64,000 bases of DNA from Squalus acanthias (GCA_030390025.1 CM059432.1:84446001-84510000); one strand, 5' to 3'. Shown: positions 3,631 through 62,538, numbered from the stretch's first letter. A program made the numbers and translations. Notes: generated from the letters alone by a model not told the origin.

Positions 3631-4392
3631 GGCCCGGAATTTGTGGTCAGCAGCAAAGCGAAGGCGTTTGCCACTGGCCCCGAAGTAATCTTCGCACAAA
3701 GATCTCACGATCTCTGTGTCGAGAAGTTTGGGTTTTCTGACATTTAGTTCAAATCAACGGAGTATAGTGGGGATCCCCTAGTGCAAGCTGCTGTGACGTC
3801 TAAGCAGCCAATCAAAATGTAGAATTCTCACAGACAGCGTACAAGTAAGTGGGTAAGCTCTTAAAATTCTAACTTTTTAAAAATTTTAGAGAGAGCAAAA
3901 CAAAGATTGGGGCTCTCTCATGAGGAAAAGGCAAACCTGAAATAAAGATGAACATACTTTAAAAAAAATTAAAATTTTTTAAAAATGTTCTTAAAAGTTT
4001 TAACTTTTATTAAAATGGATACATTTCACACTGGACAAAATTAAAATTAGTTTTTCAGGCCTATAACCTTTGTCTAGCAGTCAATATGCTGTTAAAACCC
4101 CAGTTACACCTAATCCCTTTGGGTCTAACTTTTAGTGGGGAATTTAACAACGTCATTACTGCAGAAGAGCCAAAGTTCTCGTCAGTTTCTCTGATTTTAG
4201 TGCTTACACTGATTACCGGCTCTGTGGCGAGGTTGGTGGGAGTGGGGGGGGGGGGGGGTGGTGGGCATGGTGGGTGGGGACGCATAGCATGCATCTGCAC
4301 ATGCGCCAAATCCCGAAGTTGCAGTTAGTTTCAAAGGTGGAATGACGGCAAGCGCTGCCAGTTCGCCATCATCCAGACCGCAAATTCTGCCC
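3631..4392. mobile_element. Harbinger-type MITE
   Basis: Imperfect TIR ggcccggaatttgtggtc / gaccgcaaattctgccc; 3-bp TSD AGC on both sides; AT-rich centre. Confidence 0.75.
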
Positions 4393-7300: not shown

Positions 7301-7469
7301 AGTCAATGGGCTAAAAATTCAGTTGGTTGCGCCTCCCGTTAGCGCCTTAAGAGGGCGCTAATGGGGCGCAAAGCCAGGCGCGCCGAAGTTTGCGCCGCTC
7401 GCGAACTTAACTAGACATTTTGCGGCGGCGCTAAACTTAATCGCCGCGATCTCCTGCGCACGCAGATTC

Positions 7470-7614
7470 TGACGTCATACGAGGGTGCAACGCCCTTGTG
7501 GCGCCCCAGAGCAGAAATTGAGTGGCGCCCCCATCCTTACCGCCTGGCGCATCCAACGACCGGAAGACTGGAACGCTATCAATCGCTGTGGGGCTGGGGG
7601 GGGCGCTATTTAAA
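7470..7614 (+). promoter_or_regulatory. Putative transposase promoter (CRE TGACGTCA 7470-7477, TATA-like TATTTAAA 7607-7614)
   Basis: Both motifs lie upstream of ATG 7807 and are retained in the three related MITEs. Confidence 0.5.
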
Positions 7615-7806
7615 GGGGGCCTCTTCCTGTCTTTCTCTGTGGTTGACATTTTTGCACCACTCGTTCTGAGAGAGAGAGCGATTCGGAGAGAGAGAAAGAG
7701 AGACTTCTGCATTGAGTCAACGCTGTGTGAGGTAGTTTTGGCTACTGATCATAACTTCGCTGGTACTTTGGTTTTTGGCCTTCATAACTTTGCTTGCTAA
7801 GAGACT

Positions 7807-8837
7807 ATGGGGGCTGCACTGATTGGGGGCGTCGTCCTGCGCCAGCTGAATCGGAGGACACAGAGACGCAGAGAGAGAGTGGCAATGATGGCCAGACGGA
7901 GGAGGGCCAACAGGCGTCTGTACAGGAGAGCTTACCCTCCCAGGGTATATCGTGACCAGCTCTCCTACATTCATATGTCTGATGAGCAGTGTTTGCGAAG
8001 GCTGCGCTTCAGCAAGGAGGTGGTCACTGAGCTCTGCCACCTGCTGCAGCCAGATCTGCAGCCTCAACTGAGGTCCAGGACGTCTCTGTCGGTGGCAGTG
8101 AAGATCACAGTGGCTCTGAACTTTTATGCTACTGGCTCATTTCAATCTGCTGCTGGGGACCTCGCCAATATCTCCCAGTTCGCGGTGCATTGCTGCATCC
8201 GTCACGTCACAAATGCCCTCTTTAAAAGGAGACGAGAGTACATCTCTTTCCCCATGACCCCAGACAAGCAGCATGAACGCGCTCTGGGCTTTGCGAGGAT
8301 AGCGGGCTTCCCCATGGTGCAGGGCGCCATTGACTGCACGCATGTGGCTTTGCGTGCTCCGCATGAGAATGCCGAGGATTTCCGGAACAGAAAGGGGTTC
8401 CATTCCTTGAATGTTCAGTTGGTCTGTGACCACAGACAGCTGATACTCGCTGTCAATGCCCACTATCCTGGCAGCTGCCACGATGCTTTCATCCTGCGCC
8501 AGACTACTGTGGCAGAACTTTTCGAGGCACCGCATCAGCCAGCTGGTTGGCTTCTCGGGGACAAGGGGTATCCACTGAGCACCTGGCTGATGACACCGCT
8601 CCATACGCCCAACACCCCTGCTGAGCTGCGGTACAACGAGAGCCATCAAGCTACCAGGAACATCGTTGAGCACACAATCGGCGTGCTGAAGCAACGGTTC
8701 CGCTGTCTGGACCATTCTGGAGGAGCCCTGCAGTACTCGCCTGAGCGAGTTTCCAACTTTGTAGTTGTGTGCTGCATGCTGCATAACATGGCAATCGTCA
8801 GGACCCAGCCAATGCCACCAGGCCTTGGAGCACCACC

Positions 8838-8868
<31 letters not shown>

Positions 8869-8967
8869 GAGGAGGATGATCATCAGCAGCACCAAGGCGT
8901 GAGGGCGGCCCACAATGGTGAAACTGCAAGGGCCGTCCGTCAACGGCTGATAGCAAGCCGCTTCTAG
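7807..8967 (+). CDS. Harbinger (HARBI1-like, DDE_Tnp_4) transposase, 386 aa
   Basis: [53 protein letters not shown]; acidic C-terminal tract; no stops. Confidence 0.95.
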
Positions 8968-9278
8968 GCCCCTGCTGTGGAAATGGCTTCTGCCATTGAG
9001 AACAACATCAATGAACCCAACACGCAAACCCTAAGCCGGCCAAGGCACCAATGATTCCAAACACCAAACATGTATATTTTGAATACAGAAACTTATTTAT
9101 TTTACAAACTCTGTGTGTGTCATTTCTTCATGACAAACTAATAGAAATAAACACAAAAAAACAGTCATTAACATAACTGGTTCTCACAACCTGGAGATAA
9201 TGTCCAAAACACTAAACAAAAGTTTGACCACGAACCTCGGCCTTTAATAAAAAAATGACCAACATTTTGTCACACCTC

Positions 9279-11098
9279 CTACTTTTTGCCCTTCGAGGGT
9301 GATCTCCTTCCCTTGCGCACTTCCCCCCTTCTTACCCTACTGCTCCTCCGTAATGGGACCTCAGTGGCTGCAGCAAGGCTGGTGGAAGGCTGCTGATTGT
9401 CAGACCCTGACACTGCAGAAGCCCTTGAAGGACGGCCTCGACCAGTTCTGGGCCTGGAGGGCCCGGCTGCAGACTGCACCAACTCTGCATGGGCGGCAGC
9501 AGTCTGTCCTACAGGCGGTGGCAAGTGCAGTGGAGAAGTGACAGTGTTGGCAGCAGGAATGCTGTCATCTTGAGAGAGGACAGCAACTCCCTGCTCGACC
9601 GACACACTGGCACTCCCACGGGGCAGCACTTCAGCATCCGGAACAATCTGCTGGAGCACAGATTGCTGGCCTGCTGCGGCGCGGTGAGAGCCCCGGGGAA
9701 ATGTGAACGAACCATCGAGGATGGCAGCAGTCAGTGCTCGCGTGGCCTCAATCTGAGTCTGCATGAGAACAGTCAGAGATGGGATCACGGCAGCCAGTGA
9801 CTGAATTGCAGCACTAAGCTTTAGTGTGGCATCCGCCTGTGCTACAGCGAAGTGCTCCACACTCCTTGCCAGTGATTCAATGCATTCGGGCACCCTTCCC
9901 ACTGCACCCATGAGCTCAGTGTGCATGTCCACTGCCTGGGTGTTCATTTTAGCGATCAGCCGCTCCTCCTCTGCGTCCAGTGCAGTAGGACTCGCTGGCA
10001 TACTCTCACTCCGGGGAGAAGGCCCCCGTTCTTCCCTACCCCCATGGCGTTGCTGCAGCCCGCTGGGTCCTGGAGCTTCACCCTCATCAGACCCTTCCCC
10101 CCTGCTCCCCTCCAGGGAAGGCGTGTTCTCAGTGTGGGCATGGGCTTCCTCGGGAGAGGGTGGCACTGATGCTCCGCCTTCATCTTCCTCCTCGGCTGCA
10201 GCTTCACTTCCACTGGCAGCTTGAAGGCCCGTCTCCTCAGCTGGTGAATCACCATCTGAAAGCAGGGAGGTACAAGAGTGGCTTTAGCGTGAGGACAGGG
10301 TGGCAGTAAGGGAGGAATAAGTGCAGCGATTTAGTAAGTTGGATTGAAAGTGTCAAAGGCTGGTGTTGTGAGGGACAAGTGGAAGGACAGAGGACAAAAA
10401 GGTGATGACCTTACCATTGCTGTCCAGAACGGGGTCGGCGTCTCCAGTGGCGACGGGACCGATCACCCGGCTTGCCACAATCCTGTGGATGCGCTCCTCA
10501 AGATCGCTGAGGGGTTGCAGCTGAGGCCGCCCTCCACCCGTCCATTGCTGCTGTCTCCTATTATGAGACAGCTTGGCCTGCAAGAAAAAGGACGGCGTCT
10601 GAGTAAATATACAGCCATGGTCTTGCCTGATGTGCCTCCCATAGGTGAATAGCCCTTACTGTATGCAGCCGTGGTCTTGCCTGATGTGCCTCCCATAGGT
10701 GAATAGCCCTTACTGTATGCAAAGTGTGGAATGTGTGTGTGTGTTTCATGAAAGGGCCATAGGTGTTGGATGAGTGTTGTTAATTGGGGTTTTAAGACCC
10801 TCTGGCCATAGAGTGAGGTTGAGATGGAGGGATGGAGAGGTATTGAAAAAAAGCCACTCACCCTGACGACCCGAGTGAGGTCGTTGAACTTTTTTCGGCA
10901 TTGTACATGGGTCCTGGGCACCAAGCTCCTGCAGGAGACGCTCTGAGCCACCTCCCTCCACACTCTTCTGTACTCGCGCGGCAAAGGCCTCCTGCCACTC
11001 TCAGGGAAGAGTATAGATTTTCTGCGCTCCACCGCGCCAACCAGAGCATCCAAGGCCCGCTCGCTGAAGCGCTGAGCTCGTTCTCTCACCCTCTCCAT
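9279..11098 (-). CDS. Harbinger Myb/SANT-like DNA-binding protein, 3 exons (11098-10862, 10577-10415, 10255-9279), 458 aa
   Basis: Exon 1 MERVRERAQRFSERAL...W.EVA..V...RT..QCRKKFNDL; exon 2 contains TGGG. GT-AG junctions (agg|gtgagt, ttgcag|gcc, aatg|gtaagg, tttcag|atg) join in phases 0 and 1 into one open frame. Confidence 0.85.
10612..10721. repeat. 54-bp tandem duplication in intron 1 of the Myb gene
   Basis: cagcc(a/g)tggtcttgcctgatgtgcctcccataggtgaatagcccttactgtatg twice, starting at 10612 and 10666. Confidence 0.9.
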
Positions 11099-11459
11099 AG
11101 TCCTTGGCTTGAAAATGTAATCACAGGTCTCTCCAGGTCGAGATTCAAGGCTCCAATGAACAGGGTGTGGCTGGAGAGCAAGATCGACCCTCCCCTTTAA
11201 GAACTGGCCGGCGCCAGTGTGTCTGTGTTCCATCGCTAACTGACATCACCTGCGCTGCGCCCGCGCTCTGAGTTAGCGCCTCACTCCTCGGCCTTTGCGC
11301 CTTAAGACAGGTGTGCAGCGCCTGATTTAGCGCTCCAATCACCTCCCGGGACATTAAAAGTCAAGTTTGCAGTCAGTGGCGATAATTAGCGCCAGGCGCT
11401 AATCTTTGCGCCCGGCCGATAATTGCGCCCCAAATGGGGTGATACTGAATTTTTCCCCC

Positions 11460-14400
11460 ATTGAGTCATAGAGTCATACAGCACAGAAGGAGGCCATTCA
11501 GCCCATCGAGTCCGTGCTGGCTCTCTGTAGAGCAATCCAGTCAGTCTCATTCCCCTGCTCTATCCCCATAGCCCTGCAAGTTTATTTCCCTCAAGTGCCT
11601 ATCCAGTCTCCCCTTGAAAACATTGAGGCCCAGAAATTGCAGTGTGAGGGTTCGTGCGAGGGTAAGCCCTTCCCGCGATGTCTCACTGCGCGTTGGCTTT
11701 TTCAGTCCCAGCTCGCTGGAACTTCATGTTCCAGCCATCAGCTGCGAGTGCATCGTGATCCCACAGTGCGGAGTTAGTTCGAGTGCACTGTGGGATCACG
11801 TGACTGAGTTACAGCCAATGGCAGCACACCAAGCTCTCATTCATAGAATTCACAGCGGCCATTGAACTGCTGTGAAAACTAGGAATACAACAAGCCCCCA
11901 AAAGAAGAGCTAAACCTCCATTAAATTAAAAAAAAACCCCATCACATAATTAAAATAAGTGTAATTAAATAAATTAACCTTTTTAAACAAAAAATAAATT
12001 TTTGAAAAAATTTTAAATCTTTTAAAATGTTATAAAAATAAACTTACCTGTCTTTAAAGTCGCTACTAAAGATTTACCTGTAAAAAAAAATTCTAAATAC
12101 TACTTAATTATGTACTTACCTGGTTAAAAGTGTCTCCTGCGCTTCCTTTTTTCTTTTCCAGATTCTTCAATACTTACCTGCGTGCGCAAGCGATGAAGTG
12201 CACTGCGTGCGCGCAGCCTGTAGCGCGCACGCGGTGCACTGAGGACCCGCCCCCTTTTCGAAAGATCAATTGCCGGTTTTCAGTGCATGCGCAGTGCATG
12301 CTGAAAACCGGCAATTGAAGTCTGGCTGCGTGAGTGTACACTGTGCGTACTCTCGCGCAGCCGGATCAATTTCTGGGCCTGAGTGTCTCCGCTTCCACCA
12401 CTTCCATCAGCAACGAATTTCAGGTCCTCACCACTCGCTGCGTAAAAATGTTTTTCCTCACATCCCCCCTGTATCTCTTGCTCAAAACCTTAAATCTGTG
12501 TCCCCTAGTCCTTGTACCATCAACTAGTAGGAACAGCCTTTCCCCGTCTAGCTTATCCAAACCTGTCATAATCTTGTACACATCTATCAAATCACCCCTC
12601 AACCTCCTTTGCTCTAATGAAAACAAATCCAGCTTCTCCAACCTGTCCTTGTAGCTAAGATCCCCCATCCCCAGAACAATTCTGGTAAATCTCTTCTGCA
12701 CCCTCTCAAGGGCCTTCACATCCTTCCTAAACTGTGGTGACCAGAACTGGACGCAATACTCCAGTTGTGGCCTAACCAACGCTTTATAAAGGTTCAGCAT
12801 AACTTCTCTACTTTTGTACTCAATACCTCTATTTATGAAGCCTAAGATCCATATGCTTTGCTAACCACTCTCTCAATATGTCCTGCCACCTTCAGGGATC
12901 TATGCACATTAACTCCCAGGTCCCTCTGTCTCTGCACACTCTTTAAAACTGTGCCATTAAGTGTATATTGCCTCTCCCTGTTCCTTCTGCCAAAATGCAT
13001 CACCTCACACTCCTCTGTATTAAATTCCATCCGCCACTTGTCTGCCGGTTCTGCTAGCCTTTCTATGTCCTGTTGCAGTCGATCGGTATCATCATCACTG
13101 TTTGCCACAGCCCCAAGTTTGGTGTCATCGACAAATTTAGAAATTCTACTCTGTATTCCAATATCCAGGTCATTTATATATATCAAAAAAACCAGTGGCC
13201 CCAGCACTGTCTACCATCCTCCAGTCTGAAAAACAGCCATTTACCACAACTCACTGTTTTCTGACCTTAAGCCAATTCCTCATCCAAGCTGCCACTGACC
13301 CACCTATTCCATGAGCCTCAATTTTGTTAACCAGCCTTCTATGTGGTACTTTATCAAACGCCTTCCGATAATCCATGTAGACAACATTCATTGCATTCCC
13401 TTCATCAATCCTCTCTGTTACTTCATCAAAAAATTCAATTAGATTAGTCAAACACGATCTGCCTTTTACAAATCCATGTTGGCTCTCCTTAATTAGCTTA
13501 AACCTTTCCAAGTGCCCGTTAATTTTTTCCTTGATTATTGTTTCTAAAACTTTACCCACGATTGATGTTAAACTGACCGACCTGTAGTTATTACGATTCT
13601 CCTTACACCCTTTCTTGAACAATGGTGTCACATTTGCCACTTTCCAATCCTCAGGCACCTCCCCCGCATCTAGGGAAGATTGGAAAATTATGGCAAGCCC
13701 TTCCGCTATCTCCTCCCCCAATTCCCTTAGCAACCTAGGATGCAAGCCATCTGGACCAGGCGACTTATCCACTCTAAGCATACCCAGCCTTTCTAGTACA
13801 TCCTGTTTATCAATTTTCACCCCTTCCGTTGCTTCTACCTTTTCCACTTCTACCAATATTTTGTTAGTATCCACCTCCTTAGTAAAACCGATACAAAGTA
13901 CTCATTGAGTATTCTAGCCTTACCCTGTGCCTCTAAGCATATATCACCTTCTTTGCCTCTAATAGGCCCCACCCCTCCTCTTACTACCCGCTTACTGTTT
14001 ACATGCCGGTGGAAGATTTTTGGGTTCCCTTTTATGTTAACCGCTATTCTACTCTCATATTCTCTCTTTGCCAATCTTATTTTCACATTCAGTTCCCCTC
14101 TCAACTTATTGTATTTGGTCTGGTTCTCCCTTGAAGAATTCACCTGGCATGCATTATACACCCTCTTTTTTTGTTTCATCATCTTCTCTATCTCCCTCGT
14201 CATCCAAGGAGCCCTTGCTTTGGTTCCCTTACCCTTCCCTCTTGTTGGAATGTACCTAGCCTGTATTTGGAACATCTCCTCCTTGAAGATCATCCATTGT
14301 TTCATTACAGTTTTTCCTATCAGTCTTTGGTTCCATTTTACCCTGGCTAGATCCTGTCACATCCCATTGAAGTTAGCCATATTCCAGTTTAGAAGTTCCA

Positions 14401-16889: not shown

Positions 16890-17029
16890 TCCCGAGTCCG
16901 AGTCCGAGTCCGCAAACGGCGATTTAGTCAGTAGGGGTACTTTTCAAAAGTGCCACTACTCGGCCTCCTGGCGCTGTCGGAAGTCCAAAACATTGCAGTA
17001 GCAGGTGTAGATTCTCCCGCGCTGCCTGG

Positions 17030-17325
17030 AGTCTCTTCTGATCGGCCATTTTGCTGGGTGTCTCCCACAATGCTGGTACTGTAGTCTCTTCTGATACACC
17101 ATTTTGCTGTGTGTCTCCCACGCTGCTGGTACTGTAGTCTCTTCTGATACACCATTTTGCTGTGTGTCTCCCACGCTGCTGGTACTGTAGTCTCTTCTGA
17201 TACACCATTTTGCTGTGTGTCTCCCACGCTGCTGGTACTGTAGTCTCTTCTGATACACCATTTTACTGTGTGTCTGCCACGCTGCTGGTAGTCTCTTCCT
17301 AGCCACCATTGTTCTGTGTGTCTTT
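17030..17325. repeat. 53-bp minisatellite (~5.5 copies) upstream of the Tigger ATG
   Basis: CCATTTT recurs at 17046, 17099, 17152, 17205 and 17258. Confidence 0.92.
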
Positions 17326-17362
17326 CCATCTTCATCGGCAATTATCTCCTCCATCTTGCATT

Positions 17363-19129
17363 ATGGAATTCCCAAAAGCTGGTCCAAGCAAAAGGAAGAG
17401 AGTGGTCTTAACTTTAAAACAGAAAATCGAGATATGCCAACGACTAGAAAGGGGAGAGAAGCGTATCAACATTATGAATGAATTCAAAATCGGTTCGTCA
17501 ACAATCTACGACATCAAATCGCAGAAGGATAAGCTGCTCAAGTTTTATTCAAGCTCGGAGACATCTAAGAGTGTAGAGAAACGGCGTACGCTTCATAAGC
17601 CTAAGCTTGAAGAGCTGGATACCGTGCTTTATGAATGGTTTTCTCTTAAGCGTTCAGAGGGTGTTCCAATTTCCGGACCCATGCTAATCGAGAAAGCGAA
17701 GGATTTCTATGAAAGGATGGAGCTCACTGACAAGTGTGCTTTCTCCGATGGATGGCTAACGTGCTTCAAGTTACGGCACGGGATATGATGACTCGATATT
17801 TCCGGGGAGAAGAAATCAGCTGATTACGACGCCGCAGAAGAATACTGCAATTATTTCAATCGGATTGTGCAGCAACATGATTTGTCGCCAGCACAGATAT
17901 ACAATGCCGATGAAACTGGCTTGTTTTGGAGGTTTTTGCCAGAATTAACGCTTGCTGGGGCTAGTGAGGCTAATGCTTCAGGTTACAAGAAAAATAAAGA
18001 TCGTGTAACCGTGCTAACATGTGCGAACGCTGCTGGATCACACCGGGTTAAGCTTCTTGTTATCAGGAAGTATAAAAATCCCCGTGCATTTAAAAATGTG
18101 AGGCACTTACCTGTTGAGTACAAAGCTCAAAAAGATGCTTGGATGGATAAGGAAATCTTCTCCGATTGGTTCCATCATATTTTTGTTCCATCTGTGAGGG
18201 AACATTTCCGCAAAATAGGGAAACCTGAAGATAGCAAATGCATTTTATTGCTTGATAATTGCAGAGCCCATCCGCATGAATCCCAGTTGGTTTCGGGAAA
18301 TATTTTCACCATTTATTTGCCACCAAATGTAACTTCTCTCATCCAACCCATGGACCAGGGCGTTATCCAAAATCTGAAGTGTCATTACAAGAAAGACTTC
18401 CTACGTAAACTGATAAGCCAAGATGACAATATTCAAGAATTGCAGAAGGAATACAATATTAAAGATGCCATCTATAATGTTGCATGTTCCTGGAAATTGG
18501 TGAAAGGTCACACTCTGAGGCAAGCCTGGCGCAAATTGTGGCCTTCTGTAATGTTTGCTGAAGGTTCTTCTTCAGAGGAGGAATTTCATGGGTTCAGTGT
18601 TCGTCCCAAGAAGAGTACAATAATGGAAATGGCTGGAATGGTGAAAAATGCAGGCCCAGCAAACCCTCTACGTCACCTCAGTGAAAGTGATATCGAGCAG
18701 TGGGTTGATGCAGATAGAGAAGTTGGTGTTGTGCATATGCTAAGTGATGATGAAATAATTGAGAATGTTTTGAATCCAAAGAAAGAAAAGGAAAGTGAGA
18801 TGGAAAGTGAAGAGGATGAGATTTCTGAAGAAGAGAAGATTTCTTGGGCTAAAGCTGCAGAAGGATTTTCTACAATCCTCAAATTTGCTGAAAGGCAGAA
18901 TTGCTACTCTGCACAAGAAGTTATGCAACTCCATATTCTGCATTCCACCTTTCTACAGAAAAGGCAAGAGTCCACTAAGCAAACCGATATCCGCAACATG
19001 TTTAAGAAAGCTTCTAAAAGAGTCGCAGCAGCGGAAATGCCTGAAGAATCTGTGGCATCGGTGGAACTGCGTGATCCTGATGACCCAGTTGGCACGGATA
19101 TTTCTGATGAACCAGATGACTCGGAATAA
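17363..19129 (+). pseudogene. Tigger/pogo transposase (CENP-B-type HTH + DD32D), 588 codons with two adjacent in-frame stops
   Basis: [35 protein letters not shown]. Both ORF-track pieces are in one frame, separated by TGATGA at 17786-17791. Confidence 0.9.
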
Positions 19130-28394: not shown

Positions 28395-30120
28395 ACATAA
28401 TATAAGAACATAAGAAATAGGAGCAGGAGCAGGCCATTCGGCCCCTCGAGCCTGCTCCGCCATTTAATGAGATCATGGCTGATCCGATTTTGGCCTCAAC
28501 TCCACTTTCCTGCCTGCTCCCCATAACCCTTGACTCCCCTGTTGCTCAAAAATCTGTCTATCTCAGCCTTGAATATATTCAATGACTCAGCTTCCACAGC
28601 TCTCTGGGATAAAGAGTTCCAAAGATTCATGACCCTCTGAGAGAAGAAATCCCTCCTCATCTCCATCTTAAATGGGCGACCCCTTATGACCCCTCGTTCT
28701 AGATTCCCCCACGAGGGGAAACATCCTCTCAGCATCTACCCTGTCCAACCCCCTCAGAATTTTATATATTTCAATAACTCCAATGAGTATGGGCCCAACC
28801 TGCTCAACCTTTCCTCATAAGACAACCCTTCCATCCCAGGAATCAACCCAGTGAACCTTCTCTGAACTGCCTCCAATGCAAGTATATCCCTTCTTAAATA
28901 AGGGGACCAAAACTGTACGCAGTACTCTAGGTGTGATCTCACCAGCACCCTGTACAGGTGTAGCAAGACTTCCCTACTTTTATACTCTATCCCCCTTGAA
29001 ATGAAGGCCATTTGCCTTCCTAATTACTTGCTGCACTTGCATGTTAACTTTTTGTGTTTCATGTACGAGGACACCCAAATCCCTCTGTACCGCCGCATTC
29101 TGTAGTCTTTCTCCATTTAAATAATATTTTTCTTTTCTATTCTTCCTACCAAAGTGGATAACTTCACATTTTCCCACATTATACTCCATCTGCCAAATTC
29201 TTGCCCACTCACTTAACCTGTCTGTATCCCTTTGCAGACTCTTTGGGGGGAAAATTTGGTTGCTTTGCGCCTCCCGTTAGCGCCCTAAGAGGGCGCTAAC
29301 AGGGCGCAAAGCAAATAACACCCGGGCGCCGCCAACGCCACCTGCGAAATTCAGTGGGAGGTTAGCTGCGGCAGTAACCGTTAGCGCCCCGTGGTGCTGC
29401 GACATGTAGCGCTGCGATATTCCCTCGCAGCGCCCCAAGAGGGAGGCGGGGCGCTTCCAGTAGTGCCCCGCTTCCCTCTTGGGGTGCTACCACTCAATTT
29501 TGGCCACGGGGGTGCTAATTTTTCCGGGGCGCTACTTTTAGCGCCCCGGCAAAGTTAGCGCCCCAAAGGGGGCGCGACTCAATTTTTCCCCCTTTATGTC
29601 CTCCTTACAACTTGCTTTCCCACCTATCTTTGTATCATCAGTAAATTTGGCAACAGTACACTCGGTCCCTTCATCCAAGTCATTAATATAGATTGAAAAT
29701 AGTTGAGGCCCCAGCACTGATCCCTGTGACACCCCACTAGTTACAGATCCTGAAAATGACCCATTTATCCCAACTCTCTGTTTTCTGTTAGTTAGCCAAT
29801 CCTCTATCCATGCTAATATGTTACCCCTAACACCATGAGCTCTTATCTTATGCAGTAACCTTTTATGTAGCACCTTGTCGAATGCCTTTTGGAAATCCAA
29901 GTACACTACATCAACTGGTTCCCCTTTATCCATCCAGCTCGTTACCTCCTCAAAGAACTCTAATAAATTTGTCAAACACGATTTCCCTTTCATAAAACCA
30001 TGCTGACTCATTTTCCAAATGCCCTGCTACTACTTCCTTAATAACGGATTCGAGCATTTTGCCAATGACAGATGTTAGGCTAACTGGCCTATAGTTTCCT
30101 GCTTTCTGTCTCCCTCCTTT
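28395..30120 (-). mobile_element. CR1 LINE 3' portion, interrupted by a MITE
   Basis: [27 protein letters not shown]; aagaacataagaaatagg tail. Confidence 0.92.
29245..29592 (+). mobile_element. 348-bp Harbinger MITE related to the left end of 7308-11459
   Basis: TIR ggggggaaaatt / aatttttccccc; TSD TTT; shares gcgcctcccgttagcgcc.taagagggcgctaa. Confidence 0.88.
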
Positions 30121-34620: not shown

Positions 34621-35269
34621 GGGCCGAAAATTGATCCCGGGACGCGAGAGTACGCACTGCATACTCTCGCGTATTCCCACTCCAATTGCCGGTTTTCTGC
34701 ATGCCCTGCGCATGCGCTGAAAACCGGCAATTGCTCTTCCGAAAAGGGGGCGGGGCCTGGGTGCATCGCGTGCGCGCTACAGGCTGCGCGCACGCTGTGC
34801 ACTTCATGCTTTGGACGCGCAGGTAAGTAGGGAAGATTTTGGAAATGTAAAAAGGAGGAGTAAGACCCGCTTTTAAGAAGGTAAGTAGTGAATTAAGTAT
34901 TTTTTTGAATTTTTTTTTACAGGTATATCTTTTTTATAGACTTTAAAGACAGGTAAGTTTATTTTTATAACTTTTTAAAAGATTTTAAATTTTTTCAAAA
35001 ATTTAATTTTTTATTTAAAATGGTTAATTTAATTAACTATACTTATTTTATTAATGTGATGGTTTTTTTTTAATTTAATTGAGGTTTAGCTGTTATTTTG
35101 GGGGGTGTAAGATTCATAAGTCTCACAGCCATGTTGTGAGACTTATGAATGGAAGATGGTGTGCTGCCATTGGCTCTAACTGAGTCACGTGATCCCACAG
35201 CTCGCACGAATTCACTACGCCGCTGGGATACGCAAGCCCAGCACAGCTGATGTCTGGAACATCAAGTTC
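34621..35269 (+). mobile_element. Harbinger-type MITE, multi-hairpin family, copy 2 (right end lost)
   Basis: gggccgaaaattg end; colinear with the reverse complement of 11627-12379 up to ~35269. Confidence 0.85.
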
Positions 35270-35355: not shown

Positions 35356-36246
35356 GGGGGAAAAATTCAGTTGGTTGCACCTCCCGTTAGCGCCTTAAGA
35401 GGGCGCTAATGGGGCGCAAAGCATCTAGCGCCCAGGCGCGGCGATGTTTGCGCCGCTCGCGAAATTAACTAGACATTTTGCGGCGGCGCTAAACACTACC
35501 GCCACGATCTCCTGCGCCGGCAGATCGTGACGTCAGTCGAGTGCGCAACGCCCTGGTATCGTCCCGGAGCAGATATTGAGTGGCGCCCCCTGCCTTACCG
35601 CCTGACGCTAGCAACGACAGGTTGAGGGGAGCGTTTTGCAGTCATGAAGGGACTGGGGGAGCGCTATTTAAAGACGACTGCTTCCTGCCTTTTATTGTTG
35701 GTGCCATTTTTGAACCATGCATTCTGAGAGAGAGAGAGAGACTTCTGGAGAGATTCAACGCTGTGTGAAGGAGTTTTGGGTACTGAGCAGCACTTTGCAG
35801 GTTCATTTTGATTTGCCCTTCCTTGTATCGATTTAGAAGAGACTGTGGGGGCTGCACTCTAAGCTCTTTCCCTGGTACTCTCCATTGTTCTTTCCAGCAG
35901 ATTTGATGTGCAGGTCTCTCCAGGCCAGGATTCAAGGCTGCAATGAGCAGGATGTGGATGGAAAGCAAGTTCAACCATCCCCTTTAAGAACTGGCCGGTT
36001 CCATTGTGTGTGTGTTCCATTGCTGACTGACATCACATGAGCTTCGCCAGCGCTCTGAGGTAGCGCCTCGCTCCTCGGCCTTTGCGCCTTAAGACAGGTG
36101 TGAAGCGCCTGATTTAGCGCTCCAATCACCTCCAGGGGTGATAAAAGTCAAGTTTGCAGTCGGTGGCGATAATTAGTGCCAGGCGCTAATCTTTGCGCCC
36201 AGCCGATAATTGCACCCCAAATGGGGCGATACTGAATTTCTCCCCC
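35356..36246 (+). mobile_element. 891-bp MITE derivative of the 7308-11459 Harbinger family
   Basis: Same TIRs and subterminal sequence; TSD TAA; nested in an older Myb-like remnant (RFSDAAVEMLIE on the minus strand at ~36290-36320). Confidence 0.93.
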
Positions 36247-46618: not shown

Positions 46619-47511
46619 AGGGGAGAAATTCAGTATCGCCCCATTTGGGGCGCAATTATCGGCCGGGCGCAAAGATTAGCGCCTGCCGCTAATTATCGCC
46701 ACCGACTGCAAACTTGACTTTTATTGCCCCTGGAGGTGATTGCAGCACTATATCAGGCGCTTCACACCTGTCTTAAGGCGCAAAGGCCGAGGAGCGAGGC
46801 GCTACCTCAGAGCGCTGGCGAAGCTCATGTAATGTCAGTCAACAATGGAACACACACACAATGGCACGGGCCAGTTCTTAAAGGGGATGGTTAATCTTGC
46901 TTTCCGTCCACATCCTGCTCATTACAGCCTTGAATCTCGGCCTGGAGAGACTTGCACATCAAATGTGCTGGAAAGAACAATGGAGAGTACCAGGCAAAGA
47001 GCTCAGAGTGCAGCCCCCACAGTCTCTGCTAAATCGATACAAGGAATGGCAAATCAAAATGAACCTGCAAAGTGCTGCTCAGTACCCAAAACTCCTTCAC
47101 ACAACGTTGAATCTCTCCAGAAGTCTCTCCCTCTCTCTCTCAGAATGCGTAGTTCAAAAATGGCACCAACAATAAAAGGCAGGAAGCGGTCACCTTTAAA
47201 TAGCGCTCCCCCTTTCCCTTCATGACTGCAGAACGCTCCCCTCAACCTGTCGTTGCTAGCGTCAGGCGGTAAGGCAGGGGGCGCCACTCAATATCCGCTC
47301 CGGGGCGATACCAGGGCATTGCGCACTCGAGTGACGTCATGATCTGCTGGCGCAGGAGATCGTGGCGGTAGTGTTTAGCGCCGCCGCAAAATGTCTAGTT
47401 AATTTCGCGAGCGGCGCAAACTTCGCCGCGCCTGGGCGCTAGATGCTTTGCGCCCCATTAGCGCCCTCTTAAGGCGCTAACGGGAGGCGCAACCAACTGA
47501 ATTTTTCCCCC
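46619..47511 (-). mobile_element. 893-bp MITE derivative of the 7308-11459 family
   Basis: Reverse-complement homologue of 35356-36246; TSD TTT. Confidence 0.93.
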
Positions 47512-49627: not shown

Positions 49628-50393
49628 GGGCCAAAAATTCGGCACTTGCCGGGTGAGTACGCGTTGTGTACTCACCCGTAAGGCCTCCTGAAGTGCCGGT
49701 TTCCTGCATGCACTGCGCATGCGCGGGAAACCGGAACTTCCGGTCTCGTGAAGGGAGGGGTTGAGAGGTGAACCATGTGCGTGGGAGAGGCTGCGCGCAT
49801 GCAGCGAACTTAGGTTTTTTTTCAGGTTTCTCCGGGAAGGTAAGTATGGAAGAAGCTGCACATTTAAAAAGGAGGTGCAAGACCCGTTTTTAACAAGGTA
49901 AGTGGTTAATTAATTACAATTTAAATTTTTTTTCAACAGGTTTACCTTTTTTAGATACTTTAAAGAAAAGGTAAGTTTATTTTTAGCACTGTTAAAAAGT
50001 ATTTTAACTTTTTGAAAAATTTAAATTTTTGTTTAAAGTAGTTAATTTATTTAACTTATAGTTATTTTAAAAATGTGATGTTTTTAAAAAAAATTATTTG
50101 AAGTTTAGGTGTTGTTTTGGGGCCGATTTCAATTCATAGATTTGACAGGTCTTCCTGTCAAATCTATGAATGAAAGATGGTCTGCTGCCATTGGCTCTCC
50201 ATAGCCCACCTGATCCCAAGGGACGCATCGCACTAACTACGCCCCTGGGATACACAAGCACTGCGCGCCGGCAGCTGCAGGAGGCCCAGGAGCTGAAGTC
50301 CCCGTGGGCCCAGAGGTCAACGGCAGGCGCAGTAGGTAGGTGCGCGCGGGATCCTTTCACCCGCGGGAAGCCAGGGAGCCTAATTTCTGGGCC
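49628..50393 (+). mobile_element. Harbinger-type MITE, multi-hairpin family, copy 3
   Basis: TIR gggccaaaaatt / aatttctgggcc; flanks AAT / ATT; same motif order as copies 1 and 2. Confidence 0.85.
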
Positions 50394-57115: not shown

Positions 57116-57943
57116 GAGCTGGATTTTGTCAGCCCCGAGGAGGCGGGTATGGAGGCGGGACTGACGGTAAAGTTGCAGGATTTGGGGGCGGCTGGCAAAC
57201 CCGTCCCCAACCCGCCTCCGTGCCCTTTTGTCCTGCCCCGGGTCCCATCTCCTCAAGGCGGGAAAGGGATTAAATCCTATTAACTGCCTGTTAACAGGTA
57301 GTTAACAGGCAGAAAAAAGGATTATCCCTATTTTTAGCTCCGAAGTGCAGGCTTCCCAACCTCGGAGAACCCCGCCAGGGTGCAGGAGACAAGAAGGAGG
57401 TCGGAGGGGGTCAGAGGGGGTCTGAAAGTGAGATGTAGAGGTGAGTGATGGGTGCAAGTGTGGAGTGGTAAGTATGTAAGGTGAGTGTTAAGTGTTATAA
57501 AATGTTCACTTACCTTTGTTTCTGCCTACAGCCTTCAGCCGCTGTGGATCCGGAGTCCCAAAATCTTCATTGTAGATTTCACAGACTGGCTGTTGGATCC
57601 TCCGAACCAACAGCCAGGTGATTTCTGCAAAGTTGAAAGGTTTGATGAGTCCTGAACATAAGGTCTCATCAAACTACACAGAATGTTAGTGTTTGACAGC
57701 TTCACAGAGCTGTCAAATGCTGACATTTCTTCTTTCAAGAAATCTTGATGGATGGCACATCAGACGTTGACCTGCTCTGTCAGTGACTTCCACCTAATTG
57801 GCCTGTTGAGCCCGCTGGGCGGGCTTAACAAGGTCAATCAGGGGAAAATCCCACTGGTTGGCCAGAAGCTGATGGAGGCGGGATTGAAAGCTGGCAAGCA
57901 GCAGTCCCGCCTCCAAAAGCTTCCCATTGAGAAAATCCAGCCC
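57116..57943 (+). mobile_element. Harbinger-type MITE with internal hairpins
   Basis: TIR gagctggatttt / aaaatccagccc; homologous in inverted orientation to 58028-58794; TSD not intact. Confidence 0.72.
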
Positions 57944-58027
57944 AAAGTCTCACATGTCATTGAAACATTATTTACTGGAAATACTCAGCAGGTCAGGCAG
58001 CATCTGTGGAGAGAGAAACAGAGTTGT

Positions 58028-58794
58028 GGGGGGTGATTTTGCTAATGGGGACGTGATGGAGGCGGGACTGCTGCTTGTCAGGTTTTAGTCCCGCCTCCAT
58101 TGACGTCCGGTCAGCCCACCCTATTTTCCCTTGTTTGACCTTGTTAAGCCCGCCCAGCGGGCTTAGCAGGCTAATTAAGGGAAAGCCAGTTACTGGTGAC
58201 GTCAGCGAGTGATGCTTCATCTGTCAAGAGCTTTTGACAGATGAAATGTCAGCATTTGATGGCTCTGTGAAGCTGTCAAACACTGACAATCTGTCTTCTA
58301 AGTTGAGTAGTGGGACACAGGCTTACTTAGAGATCTGTCCTGAGCTGAAAGCAGAAGGCTGGTGCATTTGAGAATGCAGCGGCCATTCTGCTTTCTCTGC
58401 TGGTGAGATGAGGGACTCCCGAGGCCTGAAGGGTTGAAGCCTGGAGGAAGAAGCAAAGGTAAATAAAGCTTTTAAAAGACTTAAGACTCACCTCACACAC
58501 TTACCTCTGGACACATGCACCCATCACTCACCTGCACACCGGACATCTCGGCCCCTCTGACCCCCACAGACCCACGGCTCGCCTCGTTGACCCTGGCGAG
58601 GTTCGGAGCCGTCGGGAAGCCCACACTTTAGGTGGCAAAATAGGGATTATCCAAAAAACTGCCCGTTAACTACCCGCCTCCTGGGAAGATGGCACGGAGG
58701 CGGGTTGGGGGTGGGATGGGTACCCGCTCCCAGATTCTGCCATTTTCCCAGCAGTCCTGCCTCCATACCCACCTCCCCAGGGCTGGCAAAATCA
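58028..58794 (-). mobile_element. Harbinger-type MITE with internal hairpins
   Basis: gggggtgattttgc / gcaaaatca ends (terminal bases lost); related to 57116-57943. Confidence 0.72.
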
Positions 58795-62312: not shown

Positions 62313-62538
62313 GTATGAAGGGGAATTCCCTTCTTTCATTGGCTCGCCTGGCCCACGTGATCCCAGGGACGCTTGCGAACCGCATGCGCCCCTGGGATCC
62401 TGGGCCCTGCGCATTTTGACTGTGGAGAGACCCAGGATCGGAAGTGTCCGGACCTCGGGAGCCCTCAGGTAAGGGCGTAGATTTTTCCCGATAGGAGGCA
62501 TCCGCACGCAGGAAGCCTCCGATCGGAAATTACGGGCC
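62313..62538 (+). mobile_element. Right end of a MITE related to the multi-hairpin family
   Basis: cattggct...cacgtgatcccaggg...ccctgggatc hairpin; aaattacgggcc terminus. Confidence 0.65.

Follow-up and report, generated by a model that had tools for sequence, protein, structure and literature searches.

Internal Dyads with Matched Arm Changes in a Non-autonomous PIF/Harbinger-type Element Family of Squalus acanthias

Introduction

Transposons of the PIF/Harbinger type are directed to short, group-specific target sites, one of which is TWA. Further targets recorded for groups of this type include ANT, CWG, and C|TNA|G (PMC4482050). The term MITE has been applied to an element as long as 1,002 bp (PMC12676858). 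With respect to cartilaginous fish, a survey of the elephant shark detected no Harbinger, and a check of other members of the group has been called for (PMC9179366). From a different field, template switching has been found to create and mend hairpins, including by changes of several bases (PMC8794818), and in yeast, the repair of double-strand breaks perfects an 18-bp quasi-palindrome, its mutagenicity being about 1000 times that of replication (bioRxiv 10.1101/2023.08.09.552703).

The present analysis concerns 64,000 nucleotides of Squalus acanthias (GCA_030390025.1 CM059432.1:84446001-84510000), referred to as the window, together with an original prediction made from this sequence, in which a MITE family composed of a chain of covarying hairpins was described. 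The material consists of four copies within the 64-kb window and the contigs of four public runs mapped to copy 1. Copies 1−3 and a fragment constitute a non-autonomous PIF/Harbinger-type (Tourist-like MITE) family, which is an abundant, non-coding, and ordinary kind of mobile element, and thus one more non-autonomous Harbinger in a genome full of them. The original prediction had proposed an undescribed system; the element is instead of a known kind, and internal palindromes have been reported in a Xenopus Harbinger MITE (PMC12676858), as well as being found in a second Harbinger family in the window.

Structure and Abundance of the Family

The copies predicted at 11627-12379, 34621-35269, and 49628-50393, with a fragment at 62313-62538, were confirmed as one family by their ends and by alignment. 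Copy 1 (11627-12379), which lies on the minus strand and is inverted relative to the other copies, is a complete element of 753 bp bounded by perfect 12-bp terminal inverted repeats (11627-11638 and 12368-12379). On the plus strand, it is flanked by TGA at 11624-11626 and again at 12380-12382. Related empty sites across a copy-1-type element, recovered among the contigs of the public run X1, read T-[A/T]-A, which together with the TGA flanks confirms a 3-bp target-site duplication. Copy 3 (49628-50393, plus strand) is a complete element of 766 bp from a diverged subfamily; its terminal inverted repeats agree at 10 of 12 positions, its left end equals that of a full-length Harbinger in the window at 11 of 12 bases, and its flanks, AAT and ATT, agree at two of three bases. 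Copy 2 (34621-35269, plus strand) has lost its right end, and the diverged right-end fragment (62313-62538, plus strand) carries one terminal repeat, so that each of these offers one end. The TGA of copy 1 fits TNA and the AAT/ATT of copy 3 fits ANT, a comparison drawn from two complete copies only. Copies 1 and 2 are 82% identical, and copy 3 is 71−73% identical to both over the aligned part.

No stop-free frame of at least 120 codons was found inside copy 1, and the three such frames that overlap copies 2 and 3, which lay outside the Pfam scan, extend into flanking DNA. Neither the transposase nor the Myb protein encoded in the window matched any of the copies, and no longer element containing the internal sequence common to the copies, i.e., no parent, was found within the 64-kb window. 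The element is likely mobilised by PIF/Harbinger proteins made elsewhere.

Copy 1 is a member of a young, amplified subfamily, as it is matched in run X1 by zero-difference contigs of 89−191 nt at depths of 1244−1498. A total of 5306 contigs of this run align to copy 1, with a summed depth of up to 1.5 million (which is not a copy count), and a stretch of copy 1 is present in 20 runs from 8 studies. None of these runs is on record as RNA, which has no bearing on expression. In a run with a different organism label, copy-1-type sequence is nearly identical, with 0−1 differences over 82−187 bases. Pattern scans for further copies returned none in viral contigs (two scans) and none in prokaryote genomes; two metagenome loci returned by a pattern scan matched over 22−26 bases only and were rejected as chance.

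The window as a whole is repeat-rich vertebrate DNA. The full-length Harbinger mentioned above (7308-11459), which belongs to another family than copies 1−3, appears intact and carries convergent genes for a DDE_Tnp_4 transposase (7801-8967, plus strand), whose nearest named relatives belong to sharks and rays, and a Myb/SANT-like protein (minus strand). Its flanks, AAT and ATT, display the same mirror-image mismatch as those around copy 3. This second Harbinger family is also represented by non-autonomous derivatives at 29245-29592, 35356-36246, from 45074 onward, and 46620-47511, the shortest of which has far more perfect dyads than the longer ends. This 348-bp MITE (29245-29592), which served as a control, contains three near-perfect dyads around a repeated 8-base motif; its dyads pair at 23 of 26 and 24 of 27 positions, compared with 12−16 in three longer ends, with 1−3 compensated pairs each.

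Several other features were observed in the window. At its start, a perfect inverted repeat of 939 nt (1-1896) covers the head of a 758-codon reverse-transcriptase frame (RVT_1), presumably Penelope-like, and represents either an assembly fold-back or an inverted element head. A further element, at 3631-4020, resembles the family in its terminal motif and also contains a CCAAT motif and donor-like motifs; its AT-rich core matches that of copies 1−3 over about 40−60 bases. A long imperfect inverted repeat at 57270-58680, with arms of about 640 bases that are 72−77% complementary, has its own chain of short dyads. Additionally, a Tigger/pogo-type transposase occupies two adjacent frames at 17303-19129 (CENP-B_N, HTH_Tnp_Tc5, DDE_1) and is adjoined by a 53-bp tandem repeat at 17026-17290.

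Internal Dyads and Their Matched Changes

All of the internal hairpins named in the original prediction, H1 to H4, were located, and a fifth stem that it had missed, H2b, was added. In copy 1, all on the minus strand, H1 (12324-12362) has 16-bp arms with 2 mismatches; H2 (12266-12318) is perfect over 18 bp and surrounds an NRF1-like motif; H2b occupies 12197-12240; H3 (11839-11886) extends over 18 bp with 3 mismatches common to the amplified subfamily; and H4 is perfect over 16 bp, its right arm containing three bases inserted relative to copy 2. The last of these stems, predicted at 11755-11801, is real and lies one base away, at 11754-11800. Copy 2, on the plus strand, comprises H1 (34642-34672), H2 (34683-34733), H2b (34761-34802), an H3 that is perfect over 16 bp (35112-35150), and an imperfect, bulged H4 (about 35188-35233). 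In copy 3, also on the plus strand, H1 (49650-49678) is perfect and H2 is present at 49690-49740, although the arms given for it in the prediction carry one G-A mismatch; an H3 that is perfect over 18 bp lies at 50132-50171 and H4 at 50213-50251. H2b is broken in copy 3, where 9 of 17 pairs are not Watson-Crick, and contributes no compensated pair. The right-end fragment retains H4 (62359-62399) and a 16-bp subterminal dyad (62488-62526).

The number of strong stems (score of at least 9) is 6, 6, 5, and 3 in copies 1, 2, 3, and the fragment, respectively, compared with a shuffled mean of 0.2−0.3 and a shuffled maximum of 3 (30 dinucleotide shuffles per copy). Every copy mixes perfect stems with broken ones: H2 and H4 are perfect and H1 and H3 broken in copy 1, H3 is perfect and H4 bulged in copy 2, and H1 and H3 are perfect and H2b broken in copy 3. 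Four dyads hold the same places across subfamilies that have diverged by about 28%. With regard to a tandem-repeat origin of the dyads, just a weak repeat of 17−19 bases was seen in the AT core.

The prediction that homologous stems differ in sequence and yet stay paired was upheld, and the matched arm changes between copies are a real effect. They were counted in an alignment of three rows with 63 gap-free pairs in H1, H2, H2b, and H3, from which H4, aligned on its own, and the short H5 dyad were excluded because of gaps. In this alignment, both members had changed in 11 pairs, including one that became U-G, compared with 4.0 two-sided pairs in column shuffles (none of 500 as high) and 0−1 in slid registers; the column shuffle can be beaten by relatedness alone, and the count involves three sequences and a null that is not tree-aware. 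Between copies 2 and 3, the two most distant copies, the 63 pairs divide into 39 without change, 14 with a one-sided change (10 of which lie in H2b), and 10 with changes in both members, no two-sided change being left unpaired. All 10 two-sided changes are thus complementary, where 1.5 were expected (binomial P of about 3e-6; 0.015 under a generous null). The corresponding values are 6 compensated pairs between copies 1 and 3 (P of 9e-4; generous null 0.12) and 2 between copies 1 and 2 (P of 0.04; generous null 0.22), all of these pairwise P values being optimistic since the stems were picked for pairing. Neither an excess of transversions among the matched changes nor the proportion that could have passed through G-U was significant, the latter being 4 of 10 (6 of 10 could not), versus 61% in rRNA according to PMC8794818 (P = 0.15). 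The variant table of run X1 was not used for the covariation count, as it is unphased and palindrome contigs align either way; in it, a common H2 change at 12304 (31% of the depth) has no partner change among the 40 of 50 variant rows covered.

The state of the stems in the amplified subfamily bears on whether pairing is needed for spread. The three H3 mismatches of copy 1 sit on a 148-nt zero-difference contig of run X1 at a depth of 1498 (neighbours 1244−1398), which indicates that the subfamily was amplified in the broken state. At the two H1 mismatches of copy 1, most other contigs carry the pairing base, which accounts for 93% of the X1 depth at 12335 (T>A) and 31% at 12331 (T>C). The most-shared parts of the family are the CCAAT block, the AT core, H2b, and the H2 loop, with summed depths in X1 of 0.5−1.5 million, and H3 and H4 are among the least-shared parts, with summed depths of 11,315 and 3,662, respectively (not copy numbers).

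Promoter-like Ends and Splice Signals

The left 210 bases of the element have a CpG observed/expected ratio of 0.99−1.15, versus 0.45 for the window, and contain motifs that we regard as NRF1-like and GC-box-like on the basis of consensus patterns rather than weight matrices. Near the right end of copy 1, E-box-like (11797-11802) and CCAAT (11815-11819) motifs on the plus strand, likewise named by consensus patterns, face inward from that end.

Three AGGTAAG splice-donor motifs (12173-12179, 12115-12121, and 12043-12049, minus strand) and an acceptor-like tract (about 12077-12090, minus strand) are kept in the three long copies, the donors standing at 34821, 34879, and 34951 in copy 2 and at 49838, 49896, and 49969 in copy 3. 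The window contains the donor pair three times, and none of 100 shuffles contains it. Contigs of two runs, X5 and X12, which belong to different studies and organism labels and whose designation as RNA is in both cases a guess, stop precisely at 12120, the final exon base of donor 2. The X12 contig, of 2230 nt, follows copy 1 without a difference over 82 bases and departs at donor 2 into other sequence; a contig of a DNA run crosses 12120 unbroken. Sense transcripts probably cover part of the element, and the breaks at donor 2 hint at a spliced leader. The donors and the acceptor-like tract likely represent the spliced leader of the parent element.

Origin of the Matched Changes

In our assessment, the chances are somewhat better than even that the dyads are kept in step by occasional copying from arm to arm at the DNA level in master elements, with weak selection on motifs helping. 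The arms of one copy are more alike than the same arm is across copies; the H3 arms, for instance, differ by 1 base within copy 2 and by none within copy 3, and the same arm differs by 5−6 bases between copies. In H4, copies 1 and 2 have identical left arms over the first 13 bases, and the right arm of copy 2 agrees with that of copy 3; the right arm of copy 1 alone has gained three bases at two places, which make it a perfect mirror of its own left arm. Two independent insertions that both match the left arm are difficult to obtain by point change and easy to obtain by one templated event, which argues for template switching. It is chiefly these one-sided insertions that make arm-to-arm conversion, offered in the original prediction as the neutral alternative, the better fit. 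Since the excision of a cut-and-paste element leaves a double-strand break, gap repair is a plausible occasion for such copying.

On this basis, a course of events can be proposed. The element would correspond to the two regulatory ends of a Harbinger parent, namely a left one made up of a promoter and a spliced untranslated leader and a right one whose promoter faces inward, and its dyads may have started as inverted pairs of protein-binding motifs. In master elements, repair synthesis would sometimes use the other arm as its template, so that a single step converts a change in one arm into a matched pair, the occasion likely being gap repair after excision or replication. Each burst of a subfamily would then fix the mix of perfect and broken stems that its master happened to have. 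Weak selection on the motifs probably helps to hold the dyads in place, perfect pairing being unneeded for spread. Some observations weigh against arm copying as the whole explanation: the comparison spans only three full stem sets, loop inversion, which is a hallmark of template switching, was not observed in the compared copies, and the places of the dyads are constant over about 28% divergence, which requires neutral switching to be frequent enough. Change rates at stem and other positions are 0.12 versus 0.20, 0.23 versus 0.32, and 0.27 versus 0.26 in the three comparisons, and the lower rate of stems in two of them fits some selection. Template switching also operates in true RNA genes, so its signature is compatible with function.

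That the matched changes arose by chance, by an alignment effect, or through the picking of stems that pair appears very improbable, because complementarity holds for every two-sided change between copies 2 and 3, in gap-free cores, and slid registers give next to none, even though three sequences are few, the copy 1 comparisons are weak under the generous null, and H2b shows no compensation. A transcribed structured RNA, either microRNA-like hairpins or a folded leader, in which pairing is selected, would account for matched changes that are real and for the fact that runs guessed as RNA hold contigs over 29 of 30 bins, both breaking at donor 2, but it is nevertheless quite improbable. Both strands of the whole element fold much more stably than shuffled sequence and to a similar degree, with a z of -14.7 versus -17.1 (20 shuffles each), the sense strand is more stable in 6 of 12 hairpin segments, and 189 cells contain 6 G-U, 6 A-C, and 10 other mismatches, so that the strand asymmetry of G-U pairs suggested as a check in the original prediction amounts, in these small numbers, to a ratio of 6:6 and no bias. 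Locally, G-U pairs do favour the sense strand in H2b of copy 3 (-18.8 versus -9.3 kcal/mol), and in the second family, four of five copies carry two sense-strand G-U pairs at one of the dyads. Rfam gave no match at threshold in the 64 kb; seven weak matches, among them microRNA hairpin models, scored 15−26 bits against thresholds of 40−100. The intact stems are long and bulge-free. Read along the sense strand, H3 and H4 follow the donors and would fall within an intron. DNA transposons do not pass through RNA, so a fold would give the copies no gain in spread. The original proposal of a structured RNA under constraint is not supported, given the absence of strand bias and of an Rfam match and the amplification of a subfamily with broken H3 and H1.

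Selection may instead act on the dyads in DNA, either as inverted pairs of sites for the Myb-like protein of the element or for host factors, or as cruciforms that aid end pairing, with the arms changing together as specificity drifts. This is a serious if rather unlikely possibility, and it is compatible with arm copying, which may supply the changes that selection keeps. In zebrafish, the Myb-like protein of Harbinger3_DR binds a 9-bp subterminal motif (PMC9710019), and mPing carries internal regions with promoting or inhibiting effects on its transposition (PMC9921582), although the mPing study found no shared sequence-specific promoting region and pointed to G+C content. Within the window, the ends of the second family hold the 8-base motif in inverted pairs, with 7−9 matches per end region, and the conserved positions of the four dyads and the somewhat better conservation of stems in two of three comparisons point in the same direction. 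Against it, a subfamily with three H3 and two H1 mismatches has spread widely, no single motif recurs across H1−H4, and the left and right ends of one copy have 6 and 12 short words in common, numbers that lie inside the shuffled range or at its limit (maxima of 10 and 11 in 60 shuffles); a comparison of the H1 motifs with the far end of the same copy pointed clearly neither toward nor away from covariation.

Taken with arm copying as the preferred explanation, the family provides a caution that changes with the look of textbook compensation can be produced in DNA with no RNA fold involved. Being abundant, with several long dyads and many subfamilies, it is also a test bed in which arm-to-arm copying could be quantified in a vertebrate. 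If the hint of splicing is true, the copies also serve as mobile first exons. A more far-reaching view, which we hold to be unlikely, is that the palindrome chains of shark Harbingers evolve in concert through transposition-coupled template switching and are at the same time selected parts of a portable promoter-plus-spliced-leader cassette made more mobile by cruciform or dyad binding. Were this true, the MITE would spread ready-made first exons through the genome, and thousands of dated copies would allow the rate of template switching to be measured in the germ line of a vertebrate.

Comparison with Described Systems

The changes described here resemble template-switch (quasi-palindrome) mutation, in which one arm overwrites the other and produces apparently compensatory changes, multi-base changes, and insertions (PMC8794818; bioRxiv 10.1101/2023.08.09.552703). 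The process has been described for rRNA, microRNA loci, and yeast reporters, and the words 'transposon' and 'transposable' are absent from the main text of PMC8794818; its operation in transposon masters is what we infer here. Arm-coupled change inside a vertebrate MITE was not found in the literature searched, which mostly excluded subscription journals.

Zebrafish Harbinger3_DR, with its Myb-like protein that binds subterminal motifs, is a model for the repeated subterminal motifs (PMC9710019, PMC2836001, PMC3016246). It is a two-protein element whose target consensus, with a CWG core, differs from that of the present element, in which comparable binding may occur. Harbinger-N12A_XT of Xenopus tropicalis is a vertebrate Harbinger MITE with internally repeated palindromes and enrichment of NRF sites (PMC12676858); it measures 342 bp, and the description consulted mentions for it neither matched arm changes nor splice donors.

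The family also resembles the Tourist-like MITEs and other PHIS elements, exemplified by mPing with Ping/Pong, with which it shares short terminal inverted repeats starting with G, a 3-bp duplication, the absence of coding sequence, a high copy number, and the presence of Harbinger transposases in the same genome (PMC2836001, PMC4482050). In contrast to Tourist-like MITEs, which are usually 100−500 bp long, it measures 753−766 bp, its copy 1 is inserted at TGA rather than TWA, and it possesses an array of splice donors together with 4−5 long internal dyads.
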